From a bacterium (GTDB lineage: Bacteria > Elusimicrobiota > Elusimicrobia > UBA1565 > UBA9628), in contig JAJXVH010000009.1 of NCBI GenBank assembly GCA_021782205.1, positions 3,432-67,431 of the forward strand: a DNA stretch of 64,000 nucleotides. Reading direction: 5' to 3'. Under the pieces are notes generated by a model. The model was not told where the DNA came from. It was given only the letters and a program-made list of their open reading frames with translations, and did not search any database. A program made the position numbers and the translations under genes. Shown here piece by piece: positions 17,977 to 51,411 of this stretch. The first letter of the stretch is position 1. Each line of letters begins with the position of its first letter.

Positions 17977-18045
17977 ACGCCGTCGCCGCCGGCGGTACTC
18001 GCGCGCGGCGGCCGCGCGCAGGACGGCGATCTTCTGATAGAATCC

Positions 18046-26157: not shown

Positions 26158-27843
26158 ATGTTCTGGGCGAAAATGAAGCTGTTCCTGCAGCGCTGGTGGG
26201 TGCCCCTGCTCATCGTTTTCGGCGTGGTGCTGTCCATCGTCATCCCGGCCTGGTATCTGTCCGGGATGGAAGAGAGCGTGCGGCGCTACATCGTCGGCAT
26301 CAACGTGGCGTCTTTGCCGTTCAGCATACTGTCGACCTTGGTCTTCGTCGGCTTCCTCTACCTTTTGCAGTACGGCGGGGGCTTTGCGATGTTCCGCAAG
26401 TCCAAGATCGACTCCGCGCACGTCAACGTGCGCTTCTCCGACGTGATCGGCAACGACGAGGCCAAGCGCGAGGCCTGGGAGGTCGTGGAGTTGCTCAAGG
26501 ATCGCGCCATGCTCAAGCGCGTGGGCGGCAAGATCCTGCACGGCCTGCTCATGGTCGGTCCGCCCGGCTGCGGCAAGACCATGCTGGCCAAAGCGATCGC
26601 CACGGAGGCGGGGGTGCCGTTTCTGTCCACCGCGGGCTCGGAGTTCGTGGAAATTTTCGTGGGCGTGGGGGCGAGCCGCGTGCGCAAGCTCTTCAGCCAG
26701 GCGCGCCAATACGCGAAGGCCTACGGCGCGTGCATCATCTTCATCGACGAGATCGAGGTGCTGGGCCGCACGCGCGTGGTCTACGACGCGTTCGGCGGCG
26801 GCCAGGAAGGCAACTCCACCTTGAACCAGCTTCTCGTCGAGATGGACGGCCTGACCGATTCCGACGCCCCGGTCGTGGTCATCGGCGCGATGAATATGAA
26901 GGAAGAGGTCCTGGACCCCGCCCTGCGCCGCCCGGGCCGCTTCGACCGTCAGATCTCCATCGAACTGCCCAACCTCAAGGAGCGCAAGGACATCTTCGAC
27001 TACTACTCGAAGAAGATCAAGGTCGATCCCGCGCTGGACTTCGCGCGCCTGGCGCGCAAGACCATCCGCTATTCTCCGGCCGAGATCGAGAACGTGCTCA
27101 AGGAGTCCATCCTGATCGCCACGCGCGAGAAGCGCGAGGTGGTCACCTACAAGGATTGCACGCGCGCCCTGGAGCGCATCGAACTGGGCATCGCGCACCG
27201 CGTCATCATGACGCCGCGCGAGCGGGAAATGACGGCCTACCACGAGGCCGGCCACCTGGTGCTCGTCTACCTCCTCCACCCCACCAACGACGTGTTCAAG
27301 GCCTCCATCATCCAGCGCGGCGGCGTGCTGGGCGTGGTGCACTCCGTGCCGCGCGAGGAATATATTCTCAGCGACTCCGCCAGCCTCTACGCGGACCTGC
27401 TCGTCTCCATGGGCGGCTACCTGGCCGAGAAGATCAAATACGGCGTGACCACCGAGGGCGTGGGCTCCGATTTCTCGCATGCGATGTCGCGCGCGCACTA
27501 CATGGTCTGGGTGATCGGCATGGGCGAAAGCGGCCTGATCGGCAACTACCACTCATTGCCGCCCAACGCCTTGTCCGACGTCATGCGCGACCGGCTGATG
27601 AACGACACGAACGCCCTGCTGAACAAGGCCATCAAAGAGGCGGAAGCCGTTCTGCGCGCCGAGTGGCCCATCGTGGAGCGCTTCGCCTCGGAACTGCTCA
27701 AGCGCGACGAGCTGGACTACGACGAGATCGTCGAGATCTTCCGCGAATACGGCAAGCCGCCGCACCCTCTGCCGGGCGCGGCACAGGCTGCCGTCTTGCC
27801 GAGTTCCGACGCTCCGCGGATTACGCCGGGCATGGCCGCCTGA
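26158..27843 (+). CDS. ftsH: FtsH-family AAA+ zinc metalloprotease paralog with a very short periplasmic loop
   Basis: GPPGCGKTMLAKAIA, IIFIDEIEVLG, PGRFDRQISIELPN, HEAGH. Two N-terminal TM helices are separated by only about 20 aa. Confidence 0.85.
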   Translation: MFWAKMKLFLQRWWVPLLIVFGVVLSIVIPAWYLSGMEESVRRYIVGINVASLPFSILSTLVFVGFLYLLQYGGGFAMFRKSKIDSAHVNVRFSDVIGNDEAKREAWEVVELLKDRAMLKRVGGKILHGLLMVGPPGCGKTMLAKAIATEAGVPFLSTAGSEFVEIFVGVGASRVRKLFSQARQYAKAYGACIIFIDEIEVLGRTRVVYDAFGGGQEGNSTLNQLLVEMDGLTDSDAPVVVIGAMNMKEEVLDPALRRPGRFDRQISIELPNLKERKDIFDYYSKKIKVDPALDFARLARKTIRYSPAEIENVLKESILIATREKREVVTYKDCTRALERIELGIAHRVIMTPREREMTAYHEAGHLVLVYLLHPTNDVFKASIIQRGGVLGVVHSVPREEYILSDSASLYADLLVSMGGYLAEKIKYGVTTEGVGSDFSHAMSRAHYMVWVIGMGESGLIGNYHSLPPNALSDVMRDRLMNDTNALLNKAIKEAEAVLRAEWPIVERFASELLKRDELDYDEIVEIFREYGKPPHPLPGAAQAAVLPSSDAPRITPGMAA

Positions 27844-27889: not shown

Positions 27890-27918
27890 TTGACTTTGCG
27901 TGCGGCCGGAGGCATACT
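27890..27918 (+). promoter_or_regulatory. Possible sigma70-like promoter: TTGACT, N17, CATACT
   Basis: Located in the 102-nt intergenic gap upstream of the kinase gene. Confidence 0.4.
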
Positions 27919-27945: not shown

Positions 27946-28845
27946 ATGACCCCGCTTGACGCTTCAATCCTCGCCGCTTTCGCACTGTTGCTGCTCCTCC
28001 TGGCGGCCTGTGCGCGTCTGCGGCGGCGGGCCGCAGCGCTGGATGGCCGCTACGAGCTGCTGGAGTTTGTCGGCGCGGGCGGGATGGGCACGGTGCGCCG
28101 CGGCTGGGACCGGGCGGAGGGCGCGCCTGTCGCGATCAAGAGCCTGCGCCGTGAACTGCGTGCCAGCCCGCGCCAACGCGAGCGCTTCCTCTCCGAGGCC
28201 CGGCTCGGCGCGCGGCTCCGGCACCCGAACATCGTGGCGTTTCGCGGCGTCGCCGGCCGGGACGGCGACCGACTGGTCTTCGAGTATGTTCCGGGACGTA
28301 CGGTTCACGCGCTGCTGGCGACCGCGCCGGGACGGTGCCTGGATCTTGACCGCGCGCTGAAGATCTTGACCTTCGCCGCGGAAGCGGTCGATTACGCGCA
28401 CTCGCGCGGCGTCATCCACCGCGACCTCAAGCCCGCGAATATGATGATCGCCGAGGATGGGACCGTGAAGGTGCTGGATTTCGGCGTGGCGTGGGAGTCC
28501 CTGGAAAAGAACGGTCGCGCGGCGGGTCCCGCTGTGGGCACTCCCGGCTATCAAGCCCCGGAACTGACGTGGGGCGCGGCCTCCGCGGCATCGGATCAAT
28601 ACGCGCTGGCGGCGAGTTTTTACGAAATGCTCACGGGGCGGCTGCCGTTTCACGGCCCGCGAACTCTGGAGGACAAGCGTGCCGGACGTTTCACGCCGCC
28701 GTCGACGGTGAAGCCGTGCTTTCCTCCCGCGTTGGACCGAGTTCTCTCGCGCGCGCTGGCGCCTCGTCCGGAGGATCGCTTTGGTGATTGTGCCTCCTTT
28801 TCCCGTGCGGCGGGGGCCGCCCGGGAGCCCGCGATCGCGCGGTAA
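27946..28845 (+). CDS. Hanks-type Ser/Thr protein kinase with an N-terminal TM anchor and no sensor domain
   Basis: [44 protein letters not shown]-terminal [16 protein letters not shown]. Confidence 0.85.
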
Positions 28846-28906: not shown

Positions 28907-30025
28907 ATGATCATGAGTTCTTCCCTGTCGCCGGTTTCGCCGCGTACGTTGTCCGTGGGCGTCTCGGAGGACCCCTATAAGAAGTATTGGTGGGTGCTTC
29001 TCGCGGGATTCGCTTTCACGGGGCTTTGGCTGTGTCTTCCCATGTTGGGAACCCCGGTCGGATCGGTCAGCGTCAATCCCGATAAAGGCGCCGCCGCCTT
29101 GGCCTCAGGCGAGGGCGGACTTGACGTGGCCGCGGCGGGAGGCAATTCCGGCGGCATCGACGGCGGGCGCGGCTACGATCTGTCGATGGGCGCGGGGGCC
29201 CAGGCCAAGGGCGAACCGGTGGACGGCCCGGACGCGTCAGGCTCGTCTCTGTACCAGGCGCCGGCGGACGCGACTGCGGGCGCACCCGTTGCGGGCGGCG
29301 CACCTCTGGGCACGGCGACGGGCGGGTCCTCGGCCAGCCTGGCCCAGGCGCTCAAGAACGCGGGGCAGGGCGCCGACCCGTCGGGCTGGGGCGGAGAGAA
29401 GGCGCGGCGCGGGTTCGACGCGCCGCATCTGTCCGGCGGGGGCCTGGGCGGCTTGGGAGGAGTCAGCGGCGGCAACGGCGGTTCATCGGGGGGAATGGGA
29501 GCTTTCGGCGCGCGCAATTCGCAAGTAGGGGCGAGCGCGGGACAGGGCTTGACCCAGGACGGCTCGACTTCCGCGGCGCCCGCCGGCGCGGGCGGAAGCT
29601 TCGCGGCTCTCCAAAAAATTTCCGGTAGCGCGACGAAGGCGGCGAGGGCCGCCGGCAGCGACGCTGCGGCCGGCGGAATGAATTCGCTTTTCGACGGCGC
29701 GAAGGCCAGGGGCGGCAGCGGTATCGGACCTGCGAGCGCCGCGGCGAATGCGGCCTACGCGGCGCTCAATTCTGCGCCCGCCAACTTGAAGACGAATCCG
29801 TCGGGCCTAAACCAGAATGGCACGCTTGCGCCCCCGCCGTCGGCTCCGGTTCCACCGACGGCCAGCGGCAGTGCCATGGGCCAGCAGCTGGCGATGATGG
29901 CGGTGGGTATCGTGGTGAGCACGGTTGCCGGAGGTTTGGTCAGCGGCTTGATGGGCCAGATGGTCGGCGCTGTTGGAGTGGCGCCAGTGTCAATGTTTGC
30001 ACAGCAGGCATCGGCGGCGCACTAG
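28907..30025 (+). CDS. Gly/Ser/Ala-rich membrane protein, paralog P1 (N-terminal TM, low-complexity region, C-terminal hydrophobic segment)
   Basis: KKYWWVLLAGFAFTGLWLCLPML; GGLGGLGGVSGGNGGSSGG; C-terminal QQLAMMAVGIVVSTVAGGLVSGLMGQMVGAVGV. Confidence 0.6.
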   Translation: MIMSSSLSPVSPRTLSVGVSEDPYKKYWWVLLAGFAFTGLWLCLPMLGTPVGSVSVNPDKGAAALASGEGGLDVAAAGGNSGGIDGGRGYDLSMGAGAQAKGEPVDGPDASGSSLYQAPADATAGAPVAGGAPLGTATGGSSASLAQALKNAGQGADPSGWGGEKARRGFDAPHLSGGGLGGLGGVSGGNGGSSGGMGAFGARNSQVGASAGQGLTQDGSTSAAPAGAGGSFAALQKISGSATKAARAAGSDAAAGGMNSLFDGAKARGGSGIGPASAAANAAYAALNSAPANLKTNPSGLNQNGTLAPPPSAPVPPTASGSAMGQQLAMMAVGIVVSTVAGGLVSGLMGQMVGAVGVAPVSMFAQQASAAH

Positions 30026-30043
30026 ATATTGAGGAGAGAATTT

Positions 30044-31681
30044 ATGGACCCCAAAACCAGAGTCCCGGAGATCAAGCCAGACGTGAACCGGGAGAAAGAC
30101 CGCGAGCGCAAGAAAGGCGGGTTTCTGGTGCGCCTCTTCGGCGCCGGCGCGGCGGAGGGCGGCGCGGGCTTGAGCGGCGGCGTCGTCGACATTGGGGGTG
30201 CGGCGGTCGGCGGGGGATTGTTGGCCACGAAGGCGGGCCTCATCGCGCTGCTGGTTGCGGGTTCGACGGTCGCGGCGGGCATCGGCTTGGTCGGCTATCG
30301 CGCGTTCGGTCCGGGCTCCGACCAAAATTCTGAAAATAACTTGGCGTTGTTCGCCCCGCGTCCCAAGACGACGGCTGGTCCGACCGCGCCCGCGCCGGGC
30401 AGCCAGAACGGCACGTCGCCCTCTTTGGGCATGCTGACCCAGGCCAACAGCAGCGGTTCCGGCGACGGCTCCGCCGGCGCGTCCGGCGGCGTGCAGGACC
30501 AGGTCGCCGCGTCCGCGGCGTCGGCCTCGGCGGGGACGACCAGCTCCACCGACGGCGGCACGGCGATGAGCGGCTCCGGCGGCGGCGCGACGGGCCAGCC
30601 GATGGCGAACATCGCGAAGTTCGGCGCGCTGGGCGCGTCCACCGGCGGGAGCAGCGGCGGCGGCGCGGTTTCGTCCGCGGCCAGCCCCCAATCCCGCGGC
30701 GAGATGTCCGCCAACTCCGCCTCGAAAGGCAACCTCAGCGGCATGATGGGCAAGAGCGGCCCCGGCGCGCGCTCCAATTCCGCGATGGCGCGCAGTTTCA
30801 ACCATTCCAGCGGCGCCACGGGCCAGGCCTTCAGCGCGCTGGGCAACCAGCGCGGAGGTATGGCTCCCTCCAGTTACTCCGCGGGCCAGACCTACGACGG
30901 CTCGGCGGGCGTGGGCGGCTCCGCGGTCGGCCCGTCGGCGGGCGTGCCCACGGTCGCCGGCGCCAGCGAAAGCGGCGGCCAGGCCGCGGCCAAATCCACG
31001 CCCAACACCGCCAACCAGGGCAGCCAGATTCAGCCGCCGCCCACGCCTCCGGCCACGAATGTGACGCCTTGGCAGGGGGACATCAACGCGGCGGAGATGA
31101 TGATAGGCTTAGGAGTTCTGTTGTTGCTCGCCAAACACACGATCGCTGCTTCCCTTTTGGATAAAACGAATCCGGTTACTGCGGGTTATGCGAAGACGGC
31201 GATGCTTGTTATCGACGGTATCATCGCTGTGTTGGGGGTGGCGATCATCGCACTGGGTGCCAGAATCGGAGGGGGCCAATACGGGCAAATCCTTCAAGGG
31301 CGTCTTTTGGCCACGGCCGGAGTGGGACTTATGATTGCGGGCGTAGGATCTGGAATCAGCGACAACGGAATGGATACCTCGACATCTTCCTTTGACAGCA
31401 GTAGCAGTTGCGGCGTGAATGGTAGCTTTTCGGATTGGGCGAGCAAATTCAGCAACGCGACGACTATGTCTACTCTAGCTTCACCGTATATCATGTTGGG
31501 TGGGGGCCTGGCGCTTATTGGTTTGGCGGGGGCAGCACTTTCGCCCCAACAACAGTATCCCTCGACGGATTTTAACAACGGGATACCGCCGGGCCAAGGT
31601 ATGTTCTCGATGGGTCATATGCCTTCTCAGGACGGGGTCTTATCCGCGCTGAACGGTTCCAAGAAGACCGCGCTTGGTTAA
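30044..31681 (+). CDS. Gly/Ser/Ala-rich membrane protein, paralog P2 (basic N-terminus, TM, low-complexity region, multi-TM C-terminal module)
   Basis: GAGGAG RBS. REKDRERKKGGFLVRLFG; the C-terminal module MMIGLGVLLLLAK...AMLVIDGIIAVLGVAIIALGARIGG...LLATAGVGLMIAGVG sits in an AT-richer stretch. Confidence 0.6.
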   Translation: MDPKTRVPEIKPDVNREKDRERKKGGFLVRLFGAGAAEGGAGLSGGVVDIGGAAVGGGLLATKAGLIALLVAGSTVAAGIGLVGYRAFGPGSDQNSENNLALFAPRPKTTAGPTAPAPGSQNGTSPSLGMLTQANSSGSGDGSAGASGGVQDQVAASAASASAGTTSSTDGGTAMSGSGGGATGQPMANIAKFGALGASTGGSSGGGAVSSAASPQSRGEMSANSASKGNLSGMMGKSGPGARSNSAMARSFNHSSGATGQAFSALGNQRGGMAPSSYSAGQTYDGSAGVGGSAVGPSAGVPTVAGASESGGQAAAKSTPNTANQGSQIQPPPTPPATNVTPWQGDINAAEMMIGLGVLLLLAKHTIAASLLDKTNPVTAGYAKTAMLVIDGIIAVLGVAIIALGARIGGGQYGQILQGRLLATAGVGLMIAGVGSGISDNGMDTSTSSFDSSSSCGVNGSFSDWASKFSNATTMSTLASPYIMLGGGLALIGLAGAALSPQQQYPSTDFNNGIPPGQGMFSMGHMPSQDGVLSALNGSKKTALG

Positions 31682-31706
31682 AAAATAGTAATTGGGACGG
31701 CTTTTC

Positions 31707-31735
31707 TTGACAGCGGGAGAGTGTCGGGCTACACT
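31707..31735 (+). promoter_or_regulatory. Sigma70-like promoter: TTGACA, N17, TACACT
   Basis: -35 at 31707-31712 and -10 at 31730-31735. A leader of about 45 nt carries CAGGAG before ATG 31787. Confidence 0.55.
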
Positions 31736-31786
31736 CCGTTGTAGATTCAAAAATGATTTTGGAGTTCGAATTTCAGGAGCGACGCC

Positions 31787-33286
31787 ATGGAAACCGCGGT
31801 GAACGACGTTCCGACTTTTAAGCTGGCCAAGGTCGGCAAGGAGCGCGACCGCAGGCGCGGAGGCGGCGCGTGGTGGAGCGGCGCGCGCGGGGCGGGTTCC
31901 GGCTTCGGCGGCCTGGGCGGAGCCGGCTCGGAGGGTTTGGCGGGGCTGTTCAGTGCCGGAAGCATGGGGCTGGGAAAAATGCTGGCGCTCTTGGCGGTTT
32001 GTGGGGTCCTGGGAGCGGGCGCGTGGCAGATGGGAAAGATGTTCAGCGTCGGCACCGGTTCGGCGGCCTCGGGTCATGCGAAGCTGTTCGCGGATCGCGG
32101 CGGTAAGTATGCCGACGCCTCCGACGTGGTGCGAGACAACAACGCGATCCCGAATTCGATCGGCTACGTGACGGGCAGCGACGACGGTATGACGCCGGAG
32201 GAGCGCGCCAAGAAGGCCGCGGAGGCGGCGGCGGCGCGCAAGGCGGCCGAGGACGCGGCGGCGGCCAAGGCGGCCGCGGATAAGGCGGCGGCGGACAAGG
32301 CGGCCAAGGACACGGCGGCCGCGGACAAGACTCCGACCGACGCGACGGCGGGAGCGGCGACGGGCGGGGGCAGCTATTTGAAGAATGCGTTCGCCTCCCG
32401 TTTCGGCGCATTGAGCAGCGGTCTGTCCGGCGGCTCCGGCTTGTCCGGCGGCATAGGCCAGAGCTTCGGTGGATTGGGCGGTGCTGGCGGCGGCTTGCCC
32501 GGCGCGAAAGGGACCAACGGATCCTTGACCGCCATGGCTTCGAGCGCGCGGCCGTCGACTTCGCACTCCACGCCGCGGGCGACTCCGCACTCCGGCGGCA
32601 ACGCGTTCTCTCAGCTGGGCATGGCGCAGAGGGCGGGAGCCGCGGCCGCGGGCACGTCGGGCGAGACGTCCGCGACGACCGCCGGCGCGCCGTTCGACGG
32701 CGGCGTGCCGGGCGGCGGCAACTCGATCGACGGGCCGGGTGCGGGTTACGGCTCGACGGGCGGCTCCGGCGTCAACTCCGGCACGAACAACCCCGGCGGC
32801 GGCCCCGTGGGCGGCGGCGGCTCCGCGTGCTCCGCGGGTCAGGGCATGGACTCTAACGGCAACTGCACGAATCTTGGCACGCCGACATCTTCGAACGCGG
32901 CAAGCTACCAACCGTTGATTGATGCGGCGATGGCGATGTTGCTAATCATGGCGATCTTGGCGGCGATTGCGTTAATGGCGGAGAAGATGGGTTGGTTTGG
33001 TGGTATAGGCGAGGCGATCGCAAAAGCAATCGAAGCGATCATGGTGGTTATGGGGTTGATGATCGCGGCGATGGGTGCGATGATCTTCATGATGAGCGGT
33101 GATAAAATGATTGGCGGCATCGTCACGACTGTCGGTTTGGCTACGGCGGCGTGGGCCCTCTGGGGCCCGAATCTTCTGACTAATGCTGACGCCACGATCG
33201 TTCAGGCCGCCGGAGGGTTGATTGCGAGTTCAGTCGGCTTGCTTGCCGCGTCAGCGGCGAGCGCGAACAATCTGGGGGCGTTGTAG
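31787..33286 (+). CDS. Gly/Ser/Ala-rich membrane protein, paralog P3
   Basis: GKERDRRRGGGAWWSG; TM MLALLAVCGVLGAGAW; KA-rich AAKKAAEAAAARKAAEDAAAAKAAADKAAADKAAKD; C-terminal multi-TM AMAMLLIMAILAAIALMAEK...IMVVMGLMIAAMGAMIFMM. Confidence 0.6.
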   Translation: METAVNDVPTFKLAKVGKERDRRRGGGAWWSGARGAGSGFGGLGGAGSEGLAGLFSAGSMGLGKMLALLAVCGVLGAGAWQMGKMFSVGTGSAASGHAKLFADRGGKYADASDVVRDNNAIPNSIGYVTGSDDGMTPEERAKKAAEAAAARKAAEDAAAAKAAADKAAADKAAKDTAAADKTPTDATAGAATGGGSYLKNAFASRFGALSSGLSGGSGLSGGIGQSFGGLGGAGGGLPGAKGTNGSLTAMASSARPSTSHSTPRATPHSGGNAFSQLGMAQRAGAAAAGTSGETSATTAGAPFDGGVPGGGNSIDGPGAGYGSTGGSGVNSGTNNPGGGPVGGGGSACSAGQGMDSNGNCTNLGTPTSSNAASYQPLIDAAMAMLLIMAILAAIALMAEKMGWFGGIGEAIAKAIEAIMVVMGLMIAAMGAMIFMMSGDKMIGGIVTTVGLATAAWALWGPNLLTNADATIVQAAGGLIASSVGLLAASAASANNLGAL

Positions 33287-33299
33287 CGGAGGCGGGGCC

Positions 33300-34931
33300 A
33301 TGGGCAATGAAAAGGACGACGTACTCAAAGCGAACCAGGGCGCTCCCGCGGCCGACATCCCGGATTTGAAGAAGAAGGAAAAAGAGCGCAAGAAGGGCGG
33401 GGTTGCGTGGGGCGGCGGCGCCAACGGAGAAGCCGGTTCGTTTGCGGGGGCTTCGGGCGGCACGGTCGCGCGCGCGGCGGCAAGCGCTGCGCTGGGGGCG
33501 GCGGAAGCGGGCGAGACGGGCGGGCTGCTGGCGACGATTTCGGAATTTTTGACGGGGTTGACGGCCACTCTTGCGGGCAAACTGGCAGTGGGAGCGGCGG
33601 CGCTTCTGATGATGATGGGCGCGGGAGCTCTCGCGTACTCGCTTCTGCACGGCGGGGCGGGCGCGGGCGCGGGCGGGATGGGACGTCCGGACCTGGGCGG
33701 GATTGCGTCCTCGCTGCACGTGCGCAGCGGCGACGGCGACATGATGGGCGTCAACGGCAAGGGCGAGTTGGCCTTCGGCGCGGCTAAGGCTCCAGCCGCA
33801 CCCACGGACGCGACCGCGGGTGCCAAGGCCGACGACAAGACGGCACCGGCACCGAAAGCGGACGACAAACCGGCGCCGAATCCGGCCGACTCCCAACCGT
33901 ACGTCCGCCAGGACGTGCTGGCGCACAACTTGAGCGGGGCGAAGCTGTCGTCGAGCTTGGGCGGCGACTTCGGCGGCAAGAACATCTTCGCGGGCGGCAA
34001 CGGCGGCTACGCGCCCAAGTTCAACGCGGGTTTGTCCCAGCTTTCCGGCACGGGGGCCAAGGGCGCGAAGGGGAATCTGGGTTCGATGGCGGCGAAGTCC
34101 ACGCGCGGCTCGATTGCCTCCTTGCAGATGCAGCGCGCGCGCTCCAGCCAAGCCATCGGCCAGCTCAAGATGGCGCGCGGCATGTCGACCATGGGCGTGG
34201 GCGCGGGGACGGCGGAAGGCGCGGCGGCGGCAGCCAACGGCGCGTTCGACCAGCAAAATCCGACGGGTGGTTCGCTCAACACCATCGGCGGCGCGGGCAT
34301 CGGCAGCGGGCCGACGAGCGGCGCCTCATCGGGATCCGGAGCGCCGGACACCACGAGCATGCCCAACGCGCCGGCCACCCCTCCCGGCACCATCACCGAT
34401 CCGGGCCTGCAGAACAGCATGAACCAGATTCAGCAGATGGCCCAGCAGGCCGGCCAACTGCAGAAAGAAGGCATGATGATGATCGTGGCCGGCATCGCTT
34501 TGATCGCGGTCGGCATTGCCTTGATGAACTCCGGTCCCTGGGGTGCCGCGATCGGCGCCGTACTCATCGGCATCGGCGGTATGCTGGTCGGCATGGGCTT
34601 CATGATGGAACAGATGGCCAGCATGATGGCGCAGATGGCCAATCAACTGGGCAGCATGGTGGCGTCCCAGGTGGGACCCTATCAGGGCCAGATCGTTCAG
34701 CAATGCACCGCGCAATCCCTGCAGGGCAACTCGAACTGCACGCCGGCGGAGACCACGGCCATTCAACAGCAGGTCAGCGGCACCACATCCGCCGGCGATC
34801 CGGGCGGCAGCAATGGCACCGCCCTCAAACAGCAAAGCACGATCGGTACGGCGACGCCGGTCCTGAGCAACGCGGGCGGAGGCACGACCAGCGGCGGGAC
34901 TTTGGCCGGCAGCGGAGGAGTCAAGCAGTAG
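33300..34931 (+). CDS. Gly/Ser/Ala-rich membrane protein, paralog P4
   Basis: GGAGG RBS. KKKEKERKKGGVAWGGG; TM LAVGAAALLMMMGAGALAYSLL; KGNLGSMAAKSTRGSIASLQMQRARSSQAIGQLKMARG; C-terminal MMMIVAGIALIAVGIALMNSGPWGAAIGAVLIGIGGMLVGMGFMM. Confidence 0.6.
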   Translation: MGNEKDDVLKANQGAPAADIPDLKKKEKERKKGGVAWGGGANGEAGSFAGASGGTVARAAASAALGAAEAGETGGLLATISEFLTGLTATLAGKLAVGAAALLMMMGAGALAYSLLHGGAGAGAGGMGRPDLGGIASSLHVRSGDGDMMGVNGKGELAFGAAKAPAAPTDATAGAKADDKTAPAPKADDKPAPNPADSQPYVRQDVLAHNLSGAKLSSSLGGDFGGKNIFAGGNGGYAPKFNAGLSQLSGTGAKGAKGNLGSMAAKSTRGSIASLQMQRARSSQAIGQLKMARGMSTMGVGAGTAEGAAAAANGAFDQQNPTGGSLNTIGGAGIGSGPTSGASSGSGAPDTTSMPNAPATPPGTITDPGLQNSMNQIQQMAQQAGQLQKEGMMMIVAGIALIAVGIALMNSGPWGAAIGAVLIGIGGMLVGMGFMMEQMASMMAQMANQLGSMVASQVGPYQGQIVQQCTAQSLQGNSNCTPAETTAIQQQVSGTTSAGDPGGSNGTALKQQSTIGTATPVLSNAGGGTTSGGTLAGSGGVKQ

Positions 34932-34966
34932 ACGCGTAAAAAGGCGGTAAAGGCGACCGGCCGTGG

Positions 34967-34995
34967 TTGACAAAGCGGAGGCCGGCCGCTACACT
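34967..34995 (+). promoter_or_regulatory. Sigma70-like promoter: TTGACA, N17, TACACT
   Basis: -35 at 34967-34972, -10 at 34990-34995, ATG at 35018. Confidence 0.55.
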
Positions 34996-35017
34996 GGGCA
35001 AGTCGCGCAATTGAGCC

Positions 35018-36472
35018 ATGACCAATAAATTCTTGGAGCGCAACAAGAGAAAGAGCCTGCTGGCGGCTCTGCTGTTGTTCCTGCGCGAGCGCAAGATGCT
35101 GGCTCTTCTGCTCCTTCTGGTGATCGGAGCGTCGACCATCTTCGTCTCGCCGTCCACGTATTGGGGCGACATTCCTGGCGGCTCGCACATGGAAGCCGGC
35201 ATCGCGTGGCTGGCCTCGCGCCTGGGCGTGGACGTACGGCGCTGGGGCTTGATGTCGGGCAACGCCCGCTTCGGCGACCTGCTGGCGGCGTTCCAGTCGG
35301 CGCGCACGGGCGGCAAGCGCGCGGGCTGGGGGCCGTTTTTCACCGCTTCCAGCGATGATGCAAAGTCGGGCTATGGCGCCGGTTCGTTGGCCTACGTCAA
35401 AGGCAGTCGCGCCGATCTGGGCGAGGGAGACACCCGCTCCGGTAACGGTAGCGGCGCGGGCGGTCCGGGTGCGTTCCAGGGGATCGTCGATCCGGCGCAA
35501 GCCGCGAAGGACGGTGACGCTTTGACTTTAGGGCCGGGAGATGTCGGCGGTCAGCGCGAGGGCTTCGTCAAAGCCGCGTTCGCGGGCGGATTCTTCAGCG
35601 GCCTGATGGGCGGCGCGGGGGGAACCGGTGCCGATGCGTTGTCCGGCGGCGCATACGCGGGACGCGGTTTCTTCAGCGGTTCGGTCGGAGCGGTCTCTGG
35701 CAACGCGGCGCAGGCGGGCTTGGCGAATATGCCGACGGTCGCGAACCCCGGCGCGGCCGCCAGCGGCATGGGCGGACGGATCTCTGGACGATTTGCGCGG
35801 GAGTTGCAGGCGCATGAGTCTCAGGGCATGGCGGGGGCCGCCTCATTGGGTGCGGGCCGCGCCTATACGCAATTGGCGCAGGGCAACGCCCAGGCGCAGA
35901 TTTCCGTCACGCCGAACTGCGGCGCCGGTTGCCCGAGCGAGTTCGCCGCGACCAACACCGGCGCGATTTACGACGGGAACACGGTCAACAATCCTGCGAC
36001 CAACGGCCTGGTCACGGGTACGCCGATGGATCCGGGCGGCTCACCGAACCTGCCGAGCTCCGGCTTGGCTCAGACCTATCTGAACAACGCTCAGCAGATG
36101 GGCCAGGACGCGCAAACCTGCCAGGCGCTTGATTCGCAATACGGCCCGCAGGAGGACGCGCTCAACACTCAGATGCAGGACCAGTCTCAGCAGTTCGCCG
36201 CGGCCAGCTGCGGCAGCGGAGGCTGCAGCCAGAGCAAGCTCAATTACTGCAATGGGCTGGCCAGCCAGATGCGCAGCACGTGCCGGCAGTATATGTCCGT
36301 GCGCTGCCAGCACACGCGCGCCTGCCCGTTGACCGCCGCGGACTCGGCGACCACCTGCAACGACGAGTGCAACCAGATCGGCAACGGCATCACCGCCCAG
36401 CAGGTGAACGTGTCTCAAGACCAGAGCGGCAACGCCGACGGTCAGGGAGTGCAGAGCGCCCCGTCGCATTAG
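35018..36472 (+). CDS. Gly-rich membrane-anchored protein, paralog P5, with a Cys-rich C-terminal module
   Basis: N-terminal TM LALLLLLVIGASTIFV, then a Gly-rich region. RAYTQLAQGNAQ motif. About 10 Cys fall in the last roughly 110 aa (CQALD...CGSGGCSQSKLNYC...STCRQYMSVRCQHTRACP...TTCNDECNQ). Confidence 0.6.
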   Translation: MTNKFLERNKRKSLLAALLLFLRERKMLALLLLLVIGASTIFVSPSTYWGDIPGGSHMEAGIAWLASRLGVDVRRWGLMSGNARFGDLLAAFQSARTGGKRAGWGPFFTASSDDAKSGYGAGSLAYVKGSRADLGEGDTRSGNGSGAGGPGAFQGIVDPAQAAKDGDALTLGPGDVGGQREGFVKAAFAGGFFSGLMGGAGGTGADALSGGAYAGRGFFSGSVGAVSGNAAQAGLANMPTVANPGAAASGMGGRISGRFARELQAHESQGMAGAASLGAGRAYTQLAQGNAQAQISVTPNCGAGCPSEFAATNTGAIYDGNTVNNPATNGLVTGTPMDPGGSPNLPSSGLAQTYLNNAQQMGQDAQTCQALDSQYGPQEDALNTQMQDQSQQFAAASCGSGGCSQSKLNYCNGLASQMRSTCRQYMSVRCQHTRACPLTAADSATTCNDECNQIGNGITAQQVNVSQDQSGNADGQGVQSAPSH

Positions 36473-36496
36473 TGCTTTAATTCAGGAGAAACCCCC

Positions 36497-39121
36497 ATGG
36501 ACCAGCCCAAGATCCCGACTCTCAAGGACTCCCAAAAGCCGCAGGTGAAGGTGCGCGGCCTGGGCGCGGGACTTTCTTTCTTCGACCGGATCAAGCAGTT
36601 CAACAAGAAGGACCTGGCCTTCATCCTGGCGGGCCTGGGCACCTTGTTCATGGCCCCGCTGGCCGAGCACTTCATGATGAGCCCGGACAACGGCGACGCA
36701 AGCTTAAGCCCCGGCTTCGGCAGCGGCAAGGGCGCCGGCCCCGGCATCTTCGGCGCGGAGGACCGCACCAGCGACGGCTCCGGCACCGCGGTGGGCAGCC
36801 CCGTGGGCGGCTCCGACGTGATCACTCCGCTGAACGTGCGCGACCCTTCCTCCCTGATCATGGGCCCCGGCTCGTCTTCCCAGCCGCCCACCAATTCCTC
36901 GGCCTCGGTCGCACCGTCGGTGAGCGCGCCGGGTCGCTCCGACCAGGACGTGCGCGACGCCTTGGCCGGCGCCGCCTCCCACGCGGCCAGCGCCGCCGTC
37001 AAGAAATCCCTATTGCCGGTTCCCAAGATCGGCCTGTCGGGCTCAAGCCTGCGCGGCCTGGGTGTCGCCACCGGCAACTCCAGCGCGACCGCCGGAGGCG
37101 GGCCGTCCATGCAGGGCCTGGGTCTGGGCAGCCACGGCAACGTGGCCAACAACATGGCCGGCGTCAAGGGCGGAGGCAACATCGCCAGCGTGGGCCCGCG
37201 CGGCCTGACCACTGGTGCCGACGCGCTCACCGCGCTGAAGGCCGCCGGAGACAAGGCCGGAGGCATGTTCGACCGCGCCGCCGGCTCGGCCCAAGGCAAC
37301 CTGAATGCGGCCGCCAATGAAGCCATTCCGTCCGGCGGCGGCCCCTCGGCCGGCGGCGGCTCCGGCCCGGGCGGCGGCGGTCCCGGCGACAAGCCCGGAA
37401 ACGGCGGCGGCCCCAAGGATTCCAAAAGCGGCGGCGAGTCCCTGGCCTACGAGCTGATGAAGCAGAACCTCCAGAAGCAGTTGGAACTGTACTGGAAAGA
37501 GCAGGAGGCGATGGATCCCACGCTTGAGCTCTACAAGATGCGCAACTCCATGGCGGAGGCGGTGGCGGGGCAGATAGGTACGACGATCGGCAACTTTGCT
37601 GGTGGAGCATTGACGGGCGTGCTTTGTAAATCGGGATTATTTGGGGGATCGGTCGCGGCATGCTTCGGACTTCAATCGACTTTCAGTTGCATCCCCATAG
37701 GTACGAATGGTCAAAACTTACCTAACGCACAGCCCATTCAGGTTGCAAATTATGGAGGGACACAGGTGGGTGGTGCGTGCGGGATGAATCAATCGACGAC
37801 AGGGGTAGGCACGCCTGGCGCAGCGACTTCGACCACTTACGCGGTCCTTGCGTTTGCGAATGATGGAAATTCGAATCATTATTTTTATTGCCAAACGTCT
37901 CCTCCCGAATTGGTCAACTGCACGGGGGCTTCGCCGGCCAACCCAACTGCACCCGGTTCGGGAACGCCCCCCCCTGCCGTCGGCCAGTTGGACGGCGGTA
38001 TCAGTGGTGCCGTGGGCGGAACGAACGCCGGTGGGTTATCTGGGATTGCGACGCAATGCAACACCATCCCGCAACTCCTGAGCACCCAGTCTTCAGGAGG
38101 CACGGTCTCCGCGCTCAGCAGCGGCCCGGCGGCGACGTGGCTAAAGGGCGCCCAGGTACAGATGCATTCTTTGGCGACGGCGCGCATGGAGTTGACGGGT
38201 GCAAGCGACGGGGCCTGCGGCGTTCAGATCGGCGATAACGTGCCGAACTTGAGGTCGATGGCTATTCACAATATTCAATCGGCGATGCAGGCCCTGACGA
38301 TCGTCGGTAGCGCGTCTCCTCTCAATCAAACCATCGCTGACGGAGGAAGCGCGCTGGGCTTGGCCGCGGGACAGGTGGCCCAAGCGCGGCAATCGTTCGA
38401 TCTGGCGAGCTCAAAAATAGCGGATGCGCTTAGGCAGGCCAGCGGCATGAATCTAAACGCGTATTCGGGGTCGGATTGCGGCCAGAATTGCAGCGGCGTT
38501 TATAGCGGCGCGACCGCCGGGCAGGCGTCCATCAACAGTGCCGCTCAAACGATGCAGCAGGCTCAGACCCAGCTCGGAGCGTTGCTCTCCCAGGCGGAGG
38601 ATGCGGTTAAATCTCAGGCGGGCGGGGGCCAGCCTGCTGCGAATGACCCGACTGCCCCGACGGATCCGACGGTGAAAAAAGTTCAGGGCACTAACACTCT
38701 CGCGGATAACCTTAACAAGGCGATTCAGGCCTACAACAATGAGACCCCCGCGCCCGCGACGCCGCTGACTCCGCCGCAGTTGACGCCTGCGGGCGGTCAG
38801 GGTGGAAGCGCTGCCGCGGCCGGCGCGGCGCCGGCTTCTCAGACACAGGCCGTCGATACTCAGGTCGCCGCGGCAAACAACGCGATCTCGTCGGCGTGTG
38901 GCGCGATGGGTTGGACTCCGAATTGTGGTCGAAAGTTGACGTCCACGGATCCTCAGCCGGCTCCGTTGGCATCAGGCACGACTCCGCAGAACGTGATCGA
39001 CCAGTCGGCTAAGCCCATCAACGGCGCGCGCAACACGCAGTGGGGGGCTCTGAACGCGATCAATACGGCGACCTCGGCCCTTATCCCGGCACAGGCACCC
39101 GCGGCGGCGGCGTCGCACTAG
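36497..39121 (+). CDS. Large Gly/Ser-rich membrane-anchored protein, paralog P6
   Basis: AGGAGA RBS. N-terminus FFDRIKQFNKKDLAFILAGLGTLFMAPLAEHFMM, Gly-rich region GGGPSAGGGSGPGGGGPGDKPGNGGGPKD, and an AT-richer Cys-containing central module. Confidence 0.6.
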   Translation: MDQPKIPTLKDSQKPQVKVRGLGAGLSFFDRIKQFNKKDLAFILAGLGTLFMAPLAEHFMMSPDNGDASLSPGFGSGKGAGPGIFGAEDRTSDGSGTAVGSPVGGSDVITPLNVRDPSSLIMGPGSSSQPPTNSSASVAPSVSAPGRSDQDVRDALAGAASHAASAAVKKSLLPVPKIGLSGSSLRGLGVATGNSSATAGGGPSMQGLGLGSHGNVANNMAGVKGGGNIASVGPRGLTTGADALTALKAAGDKAGGMFDRAAGSAQGNLNAAANEAIPSGGGPSAGGGSGPGGGGPGDKPGNGGGPKDSKSGGESLAYELMKQNLQKQLELYWKEQEAMDPTLELYKMRNSMAEAVAGQIGTTIGNFAGGALTGVLCKSGLFGGSVAACFGLQSTFSCIPIGTNGQNLPNAQPIQVANYGGTQVGGACGMNQSTTGVGTPGAATSTTYAVLAFANDGNSNHYFYCQTSPPELVNCTGASPANPTAPGSGTPPPAVGQLDGGISGAVGGTNAGGLSGIATQCNTIPQLLSTQSSGGTVSALSSGPAATWLKGAQVQMHSLATARMELTGASDGACGVQIGDNVPNLRSMAIHNIQSAMQALTIVGSASPLNQTIADGGSALGLAAGQVAQARQSFDLASSKIADALRQASGMNLNAYSGSDCGQNCSGVYSGATAGQASINSAAQTMQQAQTQLGALLSQAEDAVKSQAGGGQPAANDPTAPTDPTVKKVQGTNTLADNLNKAIQAYNNETPAPATPLTPPQLTPAGGQGGSAAAAGAAPASQTQAVDTQVAAANNAISSACGAMGWTPNCGRKLTSTDPQPAPLASGTTPQNVIDQSAKPINGARNTQWGALNAINTATSALIPAQAPAAAASH

Positions 39122-39192: not shown

Positions 39193-41868
39193 ATGAAACC
39201 CCGTAGTCCCGTCATGGTGGCGGCGTGGGCGGCGGTCTGGGCGGCGTGCTTGACGCCGGGACCGGCATTCGCCGACGCGGCCGCGACGAATGTACCGACG
39301 CCGGCGTCGAAGCCGGTCGCTTCCGCCAAGAGGGCGGACGCGCCGCATGCGCTCGAGGTCCTGATCAAGAAGGGCGGTCAGGCCCAGAAGGACGTGGAGG
39401 CGGCCGTTCAGGCCCTGGTGCTGGACCCGGATAAAAAATACGCGGCCGACGACGTGCGCGCCAGCGCGGACGATGCCAAGTTGATCTCGGCCGTGGTGGA
39501 CAAATGGGTGGGAGCGGCGCCCTTGCACGCCGCGACGCTCTACTTCGTGCTGGCTTCCAAGGATCCGGCGCCGGACTGGGTCAAGAGCGACCCGACGGCG
39601 TCCAAGCTGTTCGCGCCGAGCCAATACGATCTGCCGGCGTGCCTGGCGGATCGCCTGACGACGGCGCCGAAGTCCCAGGTGGGGCTTATTCAGCAGGCGA
39701 GCTTGGCGACGTCGCTGGGTAATTTCCTGATCGCGGCGGGAACGGATGCGCAGAAGGTCCTGCTGGATTGCGGGCACAAGCGACAAATCGAAAACAGCAT
39801 CGCCGCCCACGATCAAGGGACCGTCCCGGCGCCGATGTCTCCCGGATACGACAGCGCCAACGGGGGCGGCAACGTCCTGCAGAACGCTCCGGCCAGTAGC
39901 TTCCAGAACCTCTACGTGGACGGCGCCGTCGTGGCCAACGTCTACCGCGACAAGCAGGACGGCTACCGCAAGCTGTCGATCAAAGAGTACACCGTCAAAG
40001 GGCCGGATGGGGCGCTGACCAGTCAGATCGGCGTGGTGGACATCACCGACCCGGCGCACATCTACGCGCCGGCCTTCGTGCCGATCGGCACCGGAAAGAC
40101 CACGATTTCCGTCTACGGCGGCCATGACGGCGGCGCGCCCATCACGCGCAATTATGAATTGACCGTGGGGCCCGACGGGACCATCACTTTGGCCCGCCCG
40201 AAGACCCAGGACGGTCAAGGCGGCGTGGCCAAGTTCTCGCCCGGCGAGTTGGCGACGCTGCGCGCCAATCAGGTGGCCGCGCAGGGCGGCCAGGTCAGCA
40301 TCGACGGCAAGAACTATTATGTTCTGGGCCAGGGGGGTGCGACGGGCTCCTATCTGTTCTTCGACAAGAGCATGATCGACGCCCGCGGCAACGGCGGCAA
40401 TCCGCTCCTGCTGCGTCCGGCCGCCGTCGCCGACGGCGTGGAGACCGTCGACGCGGACGGGATGTCCGTGCCCGCGTCGGGCAAGAAGCCGGACATGGGC
40501 ACGTTCTACAATCCGGCGACGGGCGCGCAGGACCCCTATCATCTGCAATTCAACCAAGCCAGCGGCCAGTGGGAGGTCAAGCCCGGACCCGGCGACCCGC
40601 CTCCAGCGCCGCCCGGCAGCAGTACCGACACGGCCCACGTGAGCGCGGCCGCCGCTGCCGGCGCGAATACGAGTACAACCGGCGGGGCCGGGGGCGCGGG
40701 CGGTCCCGCGGCGGCGGCCAGCCCCTGCGGCGCGGCGGCGTGCGGCGACTTCAAGGACGCCTACACGGGCCGCGACGGGAACGCCGATCTAGACCAGGTG
40801 GATTTGGCGAAGGTTCACATCATGAAGGACAAGAACCAGGCGAACACGTTCTACCTGGTGTTCGCCAAGGGCCTGGTCCAGGCGCACGGCCAGGCTCCGG
40901 CGGACTCGCCATTGGTGTTCGGGCCCAGCGTGCTGCCGGGCTTGATCGGGGCGCGCGGCTTGGACGATCAGATCGTTTTCGAACAGAAAAAGGGCCAGGA
41001 TTTGACCGTGTCCTACTATCCCATCAGTGCGATCCTGGCGCAATACAACGAGGGCAAGACCTTCAACCCCGCTCTATACGATACCGGCAACAACGTGATT
41101 TCCGGCGCTCCCGCCATCGATGTCGCCCTCGACGTCGTCGTGACCTACTCCCAGGGCATCACCGACGCCTCGGGCAAGCCGGTGGATTACAAGACGGCGG
41201 CCGAGGCCATCGTTGCGAATTTCAAGAAGATAGAGGCCAAGCTCGGGGACGGCGGATATATGGTCAGCGGTTCGTTGGACGGCAAGCAGACGGGAAATAA
41301 TACGTTGCGCGTGATGCCCGACGACAAGAGCCTGCCTTACTTCGAGATATGGCCTGAGGCCAAGACGGTCGCCCGCGACGCGACGTCGAGCGGCACCGGC
41401 ACGGGCACCGCGTTCCAGATGGCGGACGTCTCTACGCTGTCCGGCGACCACTCTTTCGCGCCGGGCTTCAAGCTGGCCGACGACGCGAAGAATCCGAACG
41501 CGGCCCTGTACGTGGACGACGGCGGCGACTGGTCCGTCGTCCTGCGCATGAACCGGGCCGAAGGCGGAAAGACCTATCCGGTGCGCTCGGCGAACATCCC
41601 GCTTCAGGGCGGTATCGCGCAATGGATGAAGGCCGGAGGCGTGAAGCTTCAGGGCCTGCAAGGCGTGGGTCCGGTGTCCATCAACAACTCGAAGATCGTG
41701 TTCTTCGGCGACGATACGAAGGGCGCCTACGTGGTCTACCGCGACGCCGTGCCTTCGCCCGACAACAGCAACATTCAAAACGCGAAGGCCAACTGCGCGG
41801 GCCCCGTCATCTGGCGCGGCATGAGCAAGGCCCAAGCGCAGGCCGTCTGCGTCCAGGGACATCTCTAG
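39193..41868 (+). CDS. Secreted 891-aa protein, unknown function
   Basis: Signal peptide MKPRSPVMVAAWAAVWAACLTPGPAFADAAA. Consistent coding frame; I recognise no family motif. Confidence 0.6.
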   Translation: MKPRSPVMVAAWAAVWAACLTPGPAFADAAATNVPTPASKPVASAKRADAPHALEVLIKKGGQAQKDVEAAVQALVLDPDKKYAADDVRASADDAKLISAVVDKWVGAAPLHAATLYFVLASKDPAPDWVKSDPTASKLFAPSQYDLPACLADRLTTAPKSQVGLIQQASLATSLGNFLIAAGTDAQKVLLDCGHKRQIENSIAAHDQGTVPAPMSPGYDSANGGGNVLQNAPASSFQNLYVDGAVVANVYRDKQDGYRKLSIKEYTVKGPDGALTSQIGVVDITDPAHIYAPAFVPIGTGKTTISVYGGHDGGAPITRNYELTVGPDGTITLARPKTQDGQGGVAKFSPGELATLRANQVAAQGGQVSIDGKNYYVLGQGGATGSYLFFDKSMIDARGNGGNPLLLRPAAVADGVETVDADGMSVPASGKKPDMGTFYNPATGAQDPYHLQFNQASGQWEVKPGPGDPPPAPPGSSTDTAHVSAAAAAGANTSTTGGAGGAGGPAAAASPCGAAACGDFKDAYTGRDGNADLDQVDLAKVHIMKDKNQANTFYLVFAKGLVQAHGQAPADSPLVFGPSVLPGLIGARGLDDQIVFEQKKGQDLTVSYYPISAILAQYNEGKTFNPALYDTGNNVISGAPAIDVALDVVVTYSQGITDASGKPVDYKTAAEAIVANFKKIEAKLGDGGYMVSGSLDGKQTGNNTLRVMPDDKSLPYFEIWPEAKTVARDATSSGTGTGTAFQMADVSTLSGDHSFAPGFKLADDAKNPNAALYVDDGGDWSVVLRMNRAEGGKTYPVRSANIPLQGGIAQWMKAGGVKLQGLQGVGPVSINNSKIVFFGDDTKGAYVVYRDAVPSPDNSNIQNAKANCAGPVIWRGMSKAQAQAVCVQGHL

Positions 41869-41916: not shown

Positions 41917-41945
41917 CTGACAGGGCGGGCCTCCTCTGCTACACT
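41917..41945 (+). promoter_or_regulatory. Sigma70-like promoter: CTGACA, N17, TACACT
   Basis: Same -10 hexamer and spacing as the other TACACT promoters. ATG 41971 is downstream. Confidence 0.45.
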
Positions 41946-49953: not shown

Positions 49954-50094
49954 CGCGAAGCGGCGCACTTGATTCCAGGATGGGGAGTGAACTGAGTAGG
50001 GTCAGGCGGCCGATTTCCCAATTCTACAGAATCCGTTTCTGGTTGCCGCCCCAGAATATTAACGGCGCACAATCGATTCTGCGAATGGTGTGAT

Positions 50095-50541: not shown

Positions 50542-50574
50542 GGCAGGCCGTGCCCCCTGAAACTTGGCCGTTGC

Positions 50575-50800: not shown

Positions 50801-50918
50801 AGATTTCGACTATCAGCATCCTATCGTTACGCCCGGTCAGCCTGGCTTGTCCTGCGGGCCGACCTGCTGAGTTCGGGACGCTCGCTTCTGAGCGAGGGGC
50901 GGCGGCGCAACGACATCG

Positions 50919-51405: not shown

Positions 51406-51411
51406 TCTGTA

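Follow-up and report, generated by a model that had tools for sequence, protein, structure and literature searches.

The accessory Sec system is the export route of serine-rich repeat glycoproteins, low-complexity exported proteins with a long basic N-terminal region that are encoded beside a dedicated ATPase, while PilN and PilO cross the membrane once and bind a cytoplasmic partner through a short conserved peptide at the N-terminus. TolA and TonB, held in the inner membrane by an N-terminal anchor, span the periplasm with a long low-complexity linker that leads to a functional module at the C-terminus, and chlamydial inclusion membrane (Inc) proteins carry a bilobed hydrophobic domain of ~40-60 residues. 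Elusimicrobia are a barely cultured phylum, and we know of no account of how they interact at the envelope. In polymorphic toxin and contact-dependent inhibition systems, a conserved N-terminus is joined through a sharp junction to a recombining C-terminus (Zhang et al. 2012, PMC3482391). Streptococcal membrane proteins with glycosylated, extracytoplasmic Ser/Thr-rich disordered regions are described in PMC12041528, and passages of a preprint on Omnitrophota describe giant proteins with divergent SecA_DEAD domains that adjoin type II secretion or Tad-like loci (bioRxiv 10.1101/2023.11.21.568195). Here we compare these systems with a six-gene array in a 64,000-nucleotide stretch of an Elusimicrobiota genome (assembly GCA_021782205.1, contig JAJXVH010000009.1, positions 3,432 to 67,431; hereafter the window). 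The array occupies 28907-39121 and consists of six open reading frames (ORFs) on the + strand, P1-P6, of 372, 545, 499, 543, 484 and 874 amino acids (aa), all found as an earlier note, made from the sequence alone, had described them. We propose that their products may be inner-membrane subunits of an envelope machine that is, as far as its distribution has been followed, specific to Elusimicrobia.

P1-P6 are conserved genes in a constant order

P1-P6 are real genes that are under purifying selection and vertically inherited, and they encode six distinct membrane proteins. This conclusion follows from their substitution rates, from conserved promoter-like elements and from one-to-one orthologues in constant order in more than 30 Elusimicrobia loci. 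The ratio of non-synonymous to synonymous substitution rates (dN/dS) against close relatives was 0.17-0.30 for P1-P5 (0.26 for P1, 0.30 for P2 and 0.17 for P4) and 0.51 for P6. Third-position GC was 0.76-0.83, at a regional GC of ~65%. The Gly/Ser/Ala richness seen by the earlier note is real, each protein being 15-20% Gly, 15-20% Ala and 8-13% Ser; the motifs are also kept in 12-27 orthologues per protein and so are more than a matter of composition.

The earlier note had allowed that the ORFs might lack homologues; P4 alone has 99, with 40-88% identity over the full length. All the named ones come from Elusimicrobia metagenome-assembled genomes and are annotated as hypothetical. An exhaustive HMMER search for P4 returned 283 cluster representatives at E <=1e-3, the top 150 of which were all of the P4 type, and ten distant matches that were checked included one named protein, again from Elusimicrobia. 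So far, the cluster has been found in Elusimicrobia only. Comparison loci, labelled L001-L041, were drawn from the P4 homologues and from a metagenome scan. Wherever the contig reaches (9 + 29 related loci), the order is fixed as Ser/Thr kinase, P1, P2, P3, P4, P5, P6, P7 and P8. Orthology of P1-P6 is one-to-one, the sole exception being duplications of P3 in L007 and L008.

The window holds four copies of the element TTGACA-N17/18-TACACT, against a chance expectation of none, and three of them lie on the + strand just upstream of P1 (28872-28901, N18 spacer), P3 (31707-31735, N17) and P5 (34967-34995, N17). The first is found as the same element before P1 orthologues in relatives, and the other two are likewise kept. 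In almost all of the 41 loci that were fetched, a relaxed form, TTGACA-N16-18-TANACT, stands before P1, P3 and P5/P6. Together with the short, ribosome-binding-site-bearing gaps within the pairs P1-P2, P3-P4 and P5-P6, the elements before P1, P3 and P5 suggest three bicistronic units. The motif TTGACA-N17-TA.ACT is probably the housekeeping promoter consensus of the organism; other copies or near-copies lie at 3303-3331, at 27890-27918 before the kinase gene and at 41917-41945 before P8.

In L009, an apolipoprotein N-acyltransferase (Lnt) gene (13049-14338) sits between P5 and P6, and P6 has a promoter-like element of its own; where the Lnt gene follows P5, the element precedes P6 instead. P5-P6 gaps of similar size were seen in L019, L020, L022, L026 and L027.

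Profile comparison identifies P2, P3 and P4 as paralogues

All six proteins had been taken for paralogues in the earlier note. BLASTP among them, with low complexity masked, gave no significant pair. We therefore relied on profiles built from the 12-27 orthologues of each protein and compared by HHalign, with reversed profiles, which keep composition and hydrophobic runs, as controls. The controls scored <=42 in the main run and <=42-47 overall. P2-P3 (99.6%, score 196, 391 columns), P3-P4 (99.6%, score 195, 183 columns) and P2-P4 (98.5%, score 126, 178 columns) lie far above this range, and on these profiles P2, P3 and P4 are true, ancient paralogues. For these three, then, the similarity is not compositional only, a caveat the earlier note had attached to its own claim, and their conserved islands bear this out.

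The remaining three proteins fared differently. P5 probably shares only the island: P4-P5 reached 91% (score 59) over 102 columns in the island region, P3-P5 50% (score 43) over 66 columns, and an island-only profile matched P5 at 72.6%. The relation of P1 to P2-P4 (20-80%) is marginal, with P1-P4 at 79.5% (score 49, 44 columns) in the full-length comparison versus 0.4% with the island alone. P6, at <=13% against any other protein and scores (<=35) inside the control range, shares only the general layout and has no detectable homology to P1-P5. P7, included as a negative control, gave ~0%.

Two motifs define the P2-P4 group. The island follows the consensus KGxLxAM ... AxxQLxxA ... ExA...A..[FY]DG in P2-P4, is probably present in P5 and is not found in P6. 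A hidden Markov model (HMM) of the P2+P3+P4 island, run against 2,436 six-frame ORFs, recovered P2, P3 and P4 members and one P5 orthologue (E = 0.0016), with no false positives. Ahead of the anchor, P2-P4 share [IV]P[DTE][LFI]K ... [KR]E[KR][DE]R.[KR][KR]GG, and an HMM of this motif, also built from P2+P3+P4, found 84/84 family ORFs at E <0.01 and nothing else among the same 2,436 ORFs, P1, P5 and P6 included. The string IPTLKD of P6, which looks alike by eye, was rejected by the motif HMM. The N-terminal strings (P2-P4) and island strings (P2-P5) quoted in the earlier note are all present.

Predicted architecture of the six proteins

Membrane segments were called from hydropathy scans. Each of P1-P6 has an N-terminal hydrophobic anchor, weaker in P6, and P5 and P6 end in Cys-rich modules (11 and 12 Cys per protein), both as the earlier note had it; P1, P2, P3 and P4 have 1, 1, 3 and 2 Cys. 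The paired or bilobed C-terminal helices attributed to P1-P4 were found in P3 and P4, P1 having one stretch and P2 four segments.

P1 (372 aa, 28907-30025, + strand) has its anchor at residues 30-48, a disordered Gly/Ala/Ser linker and a single long Gly-rich hydrophobic stretch at ~328-365; the motifs DPYKKYWW, GWGGEKA.RGF and FDGAK are common to twelve orthologues. P2 (545 aa, 30044-31681, +) has the basic N-terminal motif, placed by the motif HMM at 30062-30121 (+; VPEIKPDVNREKDRERKKGG), an anchor, a disordered linker with the island, which island HMM and profile comparison place at 30713-30919 (+; KGNLSGM ... QAFSALG ... TYDGSA), and the four C-terminal hydrophobic segments.

P3 (499 aa, 31787-33286, +) combines the N-terminal cytoplasmic motif (31805-31867, +; VPTFKLAKVGKERDRRRGGG, by motif HMM), a TolA-like Ala/Lys/Asp stretch, the island (32501-32722, +; GSLTAM ... 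NAFSQLGMA ... ET.A..A.PFDGG, by island HMM and profile comparison), a Cys pair at 348/360, a hydrophobic hairpin at residues 380-436 and a further, weaker hydrophobic segment. The general plan of the array recalls TolA and TonB, and this stretch of P3 recalls TolA. However, the tolA_full model gave P3 15.8 bits against a cutoff of 59.45, with the match confined to the Ala/Lys-rich stretch 140-195, and P1-P6 lack the C-terminal domain of TolA or TonB, the C-terminal modules of P2-P4 being membrane hairpins. Pfam scans of the cluster genes found no TolQR or ExbBD partner.

P4 (543 aa, 33300-34931, +) is the best conserved of the six. Its IPDLKKKEKERKK motif is followed by an anchor (~87-117) and a disordered linker, after which come the island, a hairpin and two invariant cysteines, Cys469 and Cys480. 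The N-terminal cytoplasmic motif (33354-33404, +; DIPDLKKKEKERKKGG) is invariant or nearly so across 55 homologues. The island (34053-34271, +; KGNLGSM ... AIGQLKMARGMS ... AEGAA..A.GAFDQQ) contains two predicted short helices at residues 283-316, and the Gly/Met/Ile-rich hydrophobic helical hairpin (residues 391-436; 34470-34607, +) has conserved small-xxx-small positions at G398, G405 and G426. An AlphaFold2 model from 55 homologues had a mean predicted local distance difference test (pLDDT) score of 57, with a disordered linker and 266 of the 543 residues below 50, mostly those of the linker and of the N-terminal region; a long helical hairpin is modelled with confidence at residues 368-474 (pLDDT 85-96). 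A Foldseek search of the P4 model against the PDB returned generic helical hairpins, all with E-values >0.29.

P5 (484 aa, 35018-36472, +) comprises an anchor, a Gly-rich linker, an island-like segment at ~248-326 (35759-35995, +; GRISGRFA ... RAYTQLAQG ... EFAATNTGAIYDGN, by profile comparison) and its Cys-rich C-terminal module, in which hydropathy scans found no hydrophobic segment. P6 (874 aa, 36497-39121, +) has a highly conserved N-terminal part of 345 aa, in which a cytoplasmic motif and an anchor (~40-58) precede a Gly/Ser linker, followed by ~530 hypervariable, Cys-containing residues with a single weak hydrophobic segment.

A basic cluster stands ahead of the first helix. The conserved Cys pairs of P3 (348/360) and P4 (469/480) precede and follow the hairpin, respectively, which places both pairs on the same side of the membrane in the predicted fold. 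Taken with the Cys-rich modules of P5 and P6, these features point to a topology in which the N-terminus would be cytoplasmic and the linker and C-terminus periplasmic.

C-terminal modules of P2, P3 and P6 are exchanged between lineages

P2, P3 and P6 have a mosaic make-up. In each, ~350 conserved N-terminal residues give way at a sharp breakpoint to a divergent C-terminal module, and these modules have been exchanged by recombination between lineages. P1, P4 and P5 are uniform along their length and have no demarcated recombining module.

For P6, nucleotide identity between the window and L001 is 85-86% at 33595-37537, which covers P4, P5 and the first part of P6, and again from 39119 through P7 and P8, and the hypervariable module of ~530 aa between them (37538-39118, +) has no detectable nucleotide similarity to L001. 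Past the breakpoint, protein identity falls from 90-96% to ~26-28% and the synonymous rate dS rises from 0.2-0.4 to ~2. All the close P6 pairs listed, that is, those with N-terminal parts at least 70% identical, behave alike, with 70-93% N-terminal versus 24-43% C-terminal identity.

In P2, the variable module (31097-31681, +) begins after NVTPWQGDI.AAE, and nucleotide similarity to L039, L006, L002 and L011 ends at 31093-31103; against L039, identity drops from 85% to 45% and dS rises from ~0.7 to >1.7. The P3 module (32911-33286, +) begins after SSNAASYQ. Compared with the closest relative, L039, P3 keeps 84% identity up to the breakpoint and 33% beyond it, and dS rises; compared with the more distant L011, the figures for the two parts are 58% and 60%. 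This reversed ranking of relatives indicates recombination and not merely fast drift.

In L002 (13177-15778) and L007 (13160-15692), P6 is split into a ~500-aa gene with the conserved N-terminal part and a separate ~335-aa gene. A search for domain fusions of the P6 N-terminal part gave 15 matches, several of them ~500 aa long, and a Pfam domain was found in 0 of the 15.

The gap between P2 and P3 is a hotspot at which toxin/immunity and other cassettes have been inserted. It holds a TPR-Ntox10 toxin gene with an Imm27 immunity gene in L008 and L028, a caspase-ankyrin protein gene in L004 and L029, a Cytotoxic-domain fragment in L004, an HTTM protein gene in L007, and a 493-aa GT1-family glycosyltransferase gene with two small ORFs in L039 (2300-4359) and L040 (2730-4789). 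L039/L040 are the closest relative for the P2-P3 part of the cluster. Their glycosyltransferase is a hint that some lineages could glycosylate the Ser-rich linkers.

A predicted envelope machine of P1-P6 with P7 and P8

The cluster continues on the + strand with P7 (891 aa, 39193-41868) and P8 (2,660 aa, 41971-49953), both with Sec-type signal peptides ending in AFA|D. P7 follows P6 wherever the flank allows, matches no known family and diverges fast (82% identity in L001 versus 27-38% in L002-L008). P8 follows P7 in 15 loci, has orthologues of ~2,700 aa and contains a long helical insert and a divergent helicase-like superfamily 2 (SF2) ATPase with an invariant Walker A GKT (1369-1371) and an invariant DExD (1451-1454). 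Hydropathy found no firm transmembrane segment in P8, which has one Cys in 2,660 aa. All the named ones among its 28 homologues are from Elusimicrobia, and a Pfam domain was found in 0 of the 28. Upstream, the usual neighbour of P1 is a membrane-anchored Hanks-type Ser/Thr kinase gene (299 aa, 27946-28845, +; Pkinase E = 4.5e-42), present in most loci whose flank extends far enough.

In L041 (GCA_027401745.1, contig DAHZIG010000329.1), P8 is 100% identical and is followed by the same TrkA-type channel gene. Two segments, 47697-47850 inside P8 and 49955-51502 downstream of it, have no nucleotide similarity to L001, and their flanks are 86-92% identical.

As the earlier note had recognised no named family, so searches with Pfam, NCBIfam, PADLOC and PDB profiles found nothing above threshold. 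Pfam and NCBIfam gave P1-P8 only sub-threshold noise (DUF3040, DUF373, FoP, TolA, TC0500 Inc, SCO2097, ResIII), PADLOC models did not match P1-P8, and profiles of P4, P5 and P7 had no match among PDB sequences; phmmer and profile searches of P8 against the same sequences gave coiled-coil noise only. No published account of the kinase-P1-P8 cluster was found in the literature. To judge from these searches, no component among P1-P7 falls in a described family, and the cluster, especially its mosaic modules, appears to be new.

We predict, with a probability of roughly 45%, that P1-P6 are inner-membrane subunits of an Elusimicrobia-specific envelope machine that works with P7 and P8 in export or cell contact. 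Each protein would keep a short basic N-terminus in the cytoplasm and use its one helix as an inner-membrane anchor. The disordered Gly/Ser/Ala linker of 250-300 residues would lie in the periplasm and hold short conserved motifs such as the island. In P2-P4, the C-terminal module would be a Gly-rich hydrophobic hairpin re-entering the inner membrane, and in P5 and P6 a Cys-rich periplasmic domain. The six proteins may form a hetero-oligomeric inner-membrane/periplasmic complex in which the hairpins pack together and the paralogous P2-P4 make up the core, while the basic N-terminal peptides could be the docking site of a cytoplasmic partner or targets of the kinase. The complex would act with P7 and the ATPase-bearing P8. 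One-to-one orthology in constant order argues for subunits of a machine rather than an expanding effector family. A role in secretion or cell contact is suggested by the recombining C-terminal modules, the fast divergence of P7, the toxin/immunity hotspot, the RNase A toxin gene inserted beside the cluster in the window, the signal peptide of P7 and the giant, signal-peptide-bearing P8 with its invariant ATPase motifs, which are context and not proof.

Several points weigh against this proposal. P1-P7 have no detectable relative of known function, so that function is read from context alone, and the topology is built on hydropathy, charge and Cys positions. P8 is apparently Sec-exported and without a firm transmembrane segment, and a periplasmic ATPase is hard to reconcile with a motor. 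The toxin cassettes could reflect a recombination hotspot instead of a functional link. Finally, membrane hairpins such as the variable modules of P2 and P3 are unusual in surface-exposed determinants.

Few gene blocks in these genomes are as consistently syntenic as this one, of eight to ten genes, although P1-P7 resemble nothing described, and it unites motif-bearing disordered periplasmic linkers, recombining membrane hairpins, a signal-peptide ATPase giant and a toxin/immunity hotspot in an unusual combination. If the prediction holds, the machine would represent an envelope system of a type new to bacteria and a natural case for the roles of disordered regions in the periplasm. If the proteins do not form a machine, they still define three new protein families (P2-P4, P5 and P6) and a marker cluster for annotating Elusimicrobia genomes.

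Alternative explanations

A bolder version of the same idea, possible but doubtful, is that the cluster encodes an unrecognised Elusimicrobia envelope machine for export or contact between cells. Its core, in the inner membrane and periplasm, would be built from the disordered linkers and the Gly-rich hairpins, while the recombining P2, P3 and P6 modules would serve as exchangeable specificity or effector determinants, and the Sec-dependent polymorphic toxins of the hotspot would be its clients.

We regard it as unlikely that P2, P3 and P6, or perhaps all six, are instead exported, membrane-inserting effectors or pore-forming polymorphic toxins of an Inc-, translocator- or colicin-like kind, in which the conserved N-terminal 350 aa would be responsible for trafficking and the module swapped at the C-terminus would be a payload that inserts into the target membrane. 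Sharp breakpoints after conserved motifs and recombining C-terminal modules do resemble polymorphic toxins, the cluster contains or adjoins genuine toxin/immunity (Ntox10/Imm27) and RNase toxin cassettes, and P2 and P3 have hydrophobic helical hairpins as their variable modules; the P4 model also matches the alpha-pore-forming toxins MakA and AhlB, weakly and non-significantly. Yet Pfam recognised no toxin domain in the variable modules of ten P6 alleles, which gave no meaningful match of any kind, or in full-length P2 and P3. Directly after P2, P3 and P6 in the window there is no cognate immunity gene: the gaps of 105, 13 and 71 nucleotides each lead into the next conserved gene and cannot hold one. 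P2, P3 and P6 are, unlike polymorphic toxins, membrane-anchored and strictly syntenic; an N-terminal anchor and very hydrophobic hairpins (Kyte-Doolittle 2.4-2.7) would keep the proteins in the inner membrane of the producer, and P4 carries the same hairpin yet is not variable.

The likeness to Inc proteins and type III translocators, on which the earlier note had leaned, is confined to P3 (380-436) and P4 (391-436), whose bilobed hydrophobic hairpin of ~45 residues is of the Inc type and is flanked by long Gln-rich helices. Closer comparison did not support it. The only Inc match, to model NF052432 (TC0500_fam_Inc), had 14.5 bits (E = 0.016) where the cutoff is 240, other effector HMMs did not match either, and no type III secretion family was found among the window ORFs scanned with Pfam, which cover part of the window. 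P1-P6 further differ from these proteins in their additional N-terminal anchor and ~270-residue linker, in conserved Cys pairs that are periplasmic in the predicted topology, and in being fixed one-to-one orthologues, in the same order, of Elusimicrobia from environmental metagenomes.

It is quite improbable that P1-P6 are cargo of an accessory-Sec-like export route driven by the P8 ATPase, with the basic, Gly-rich N-terminus as an extended signal and a Gly/Ser/Ala region that might be glycosylated. The array shares with accessory Sec loci low-complexity, Ser-rich, putatively exported proteins beside a dedicated ATPase, a long basic N-terminal region and, in the cluster of one relative (L039, L040), a GT1-family glycosyltransferase gene. 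By eye, the P8 motifs MLKTGGGKT, LTVQSNLEAQ, GDEMDGAALQPALTIG, SGTAG and GGRGLD are SecA-like, and HHalign placed P8 1321-1491 on E. coli SecA 50-249, the regions expected to correspond, at 28% identity, but at a probability of only 7% and with an approximate SecA sequence. Other tests did not confirm a SecA identity of P8: Pfam matched 16 P8 orthologues weakly to ResIII (10/16) and DEAD (3/16) and never to SecA_DEAD, and an AlphaFold2 model of residues 1331-2530 (pLDDT 75) gave only non-significant SF2 helicase matches in Foldseek. P8 itself bears a Sec signal peptide, no SecY2/SecY-like or Asp-like gene appeared in Pfam scans or in the gene tables of relatives, the glycosyltransferase is confined to one lineage, and P1-P6 have no cell-wall anchor, ending in membrane hairpins or Cys-rich domains.

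Two published cases lend the cargo idea some colour. The Omnitrophota giants appear, from passages of the preprint (10.1101/2023.11.21.568195), to be the nearest published parallel to P8, being very large proteins with a divergent helicase- or SecA-like ATPase near a Tad/type II-like locus; P8 is ~ten times smaller, has no firm transmembrane segments and no Pfam SecA_DEAD domain, and those passages make no mention of a Gly/Ser/Ala-rich membrane-protein array. The streptococcal proteins of PMC12041528 likewise have a membrane anchor and long, low-complexity, disordered extracytoplasmic regions, in their case glycosylated, but they belong to another phylum with another envelope type, and the linkers of P1-P6 carry islands and are encoded in one dedicated cluster.

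We give little credence to the idea that P1-P6 are PilN/PilO-like accessory or alignment subunits of a Tad or type IV filament machine encoded nearby. The window does contain, ~17 kb upstream of the array, a Tad or type II secretion-like locus (5004-11966), with a secretin gene (5004-5837), two T2SSF (TadB/C-like) genes (within 5958-9695 and 9697-10605) and a TPR gene (10605-11966). Just upstream of an FtsH paralogue, at 24362-26088, there are also a 409-aa gene with a hydrophobic N-terminus and an adjoining ~183-aa gene whose similar N-terminus is weakly TadE-like (E = 0.015, and 0.012 in the L002 orthologue); both recur in L002, L006, L011 and L012. As to the link with Tad loci, for which the earlier note had suggested a check in relatives, a weak TadE-like gene adjoins the cluster in the window and closer relatives. 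The TadE matches are below the Pfam threshold, however, more distant relatives have other neighbours and no Tad genes within 10 kb of the cluster, and P1-P6 have no prepilin-type N-terminus and match no Tad, Pil or Gsp family in Pfam or NCBIfam.

That the resemblance is purely compositional, or that the ORFs are not genes, is extremely improbable: masked BLASTP among the six was not significant and high-GC DNA yields many long spurious ORFs, but purifying selection, conserved promoters, invariant residues at particular positions in hundreds of homologues, profile scores of 126-196 forward versus <=47 reversed and motif HMMs free of false positives refute it for P2-P4, leaving it as the default only for P1 and P6 as family members.

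Other genes in the window

On the - strand, 53148-63242 holds four long ORFs (1,594, 371, 374 and 853 aa; putative genes) with no Pfam match. Two-component regulators follow the Tad-like locus at 13631-19173. The FtsH paralogue (26158-27843, +) has two transmembrane helices, an AAA domain, which gave only generic PADLOC matches, and an M41 peptidase domain with HEAGH; it also lies upstream in L002, L006, L007, L011, L012, L023 and L024. In closer relatives, a DUF2332 gene, the 409-aa gene, the 183-aa weakly TadE-like gene and the FtsH paralogue precede the kinase-P8 unit. The possibility that neighbouring toxins share a P-like N-terminus was ruled out by their ordinary signal peptides and other domains. 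One such protein, of 982 aa (21046-23994), has a CdiA-CT RNase A toxin domain at its C-terminus (E = 9.8e-19) as well as a signal peptide, and its gene is inserted between the DUF2332 and 409-aa genes, which are adjacent in L002 and L006.

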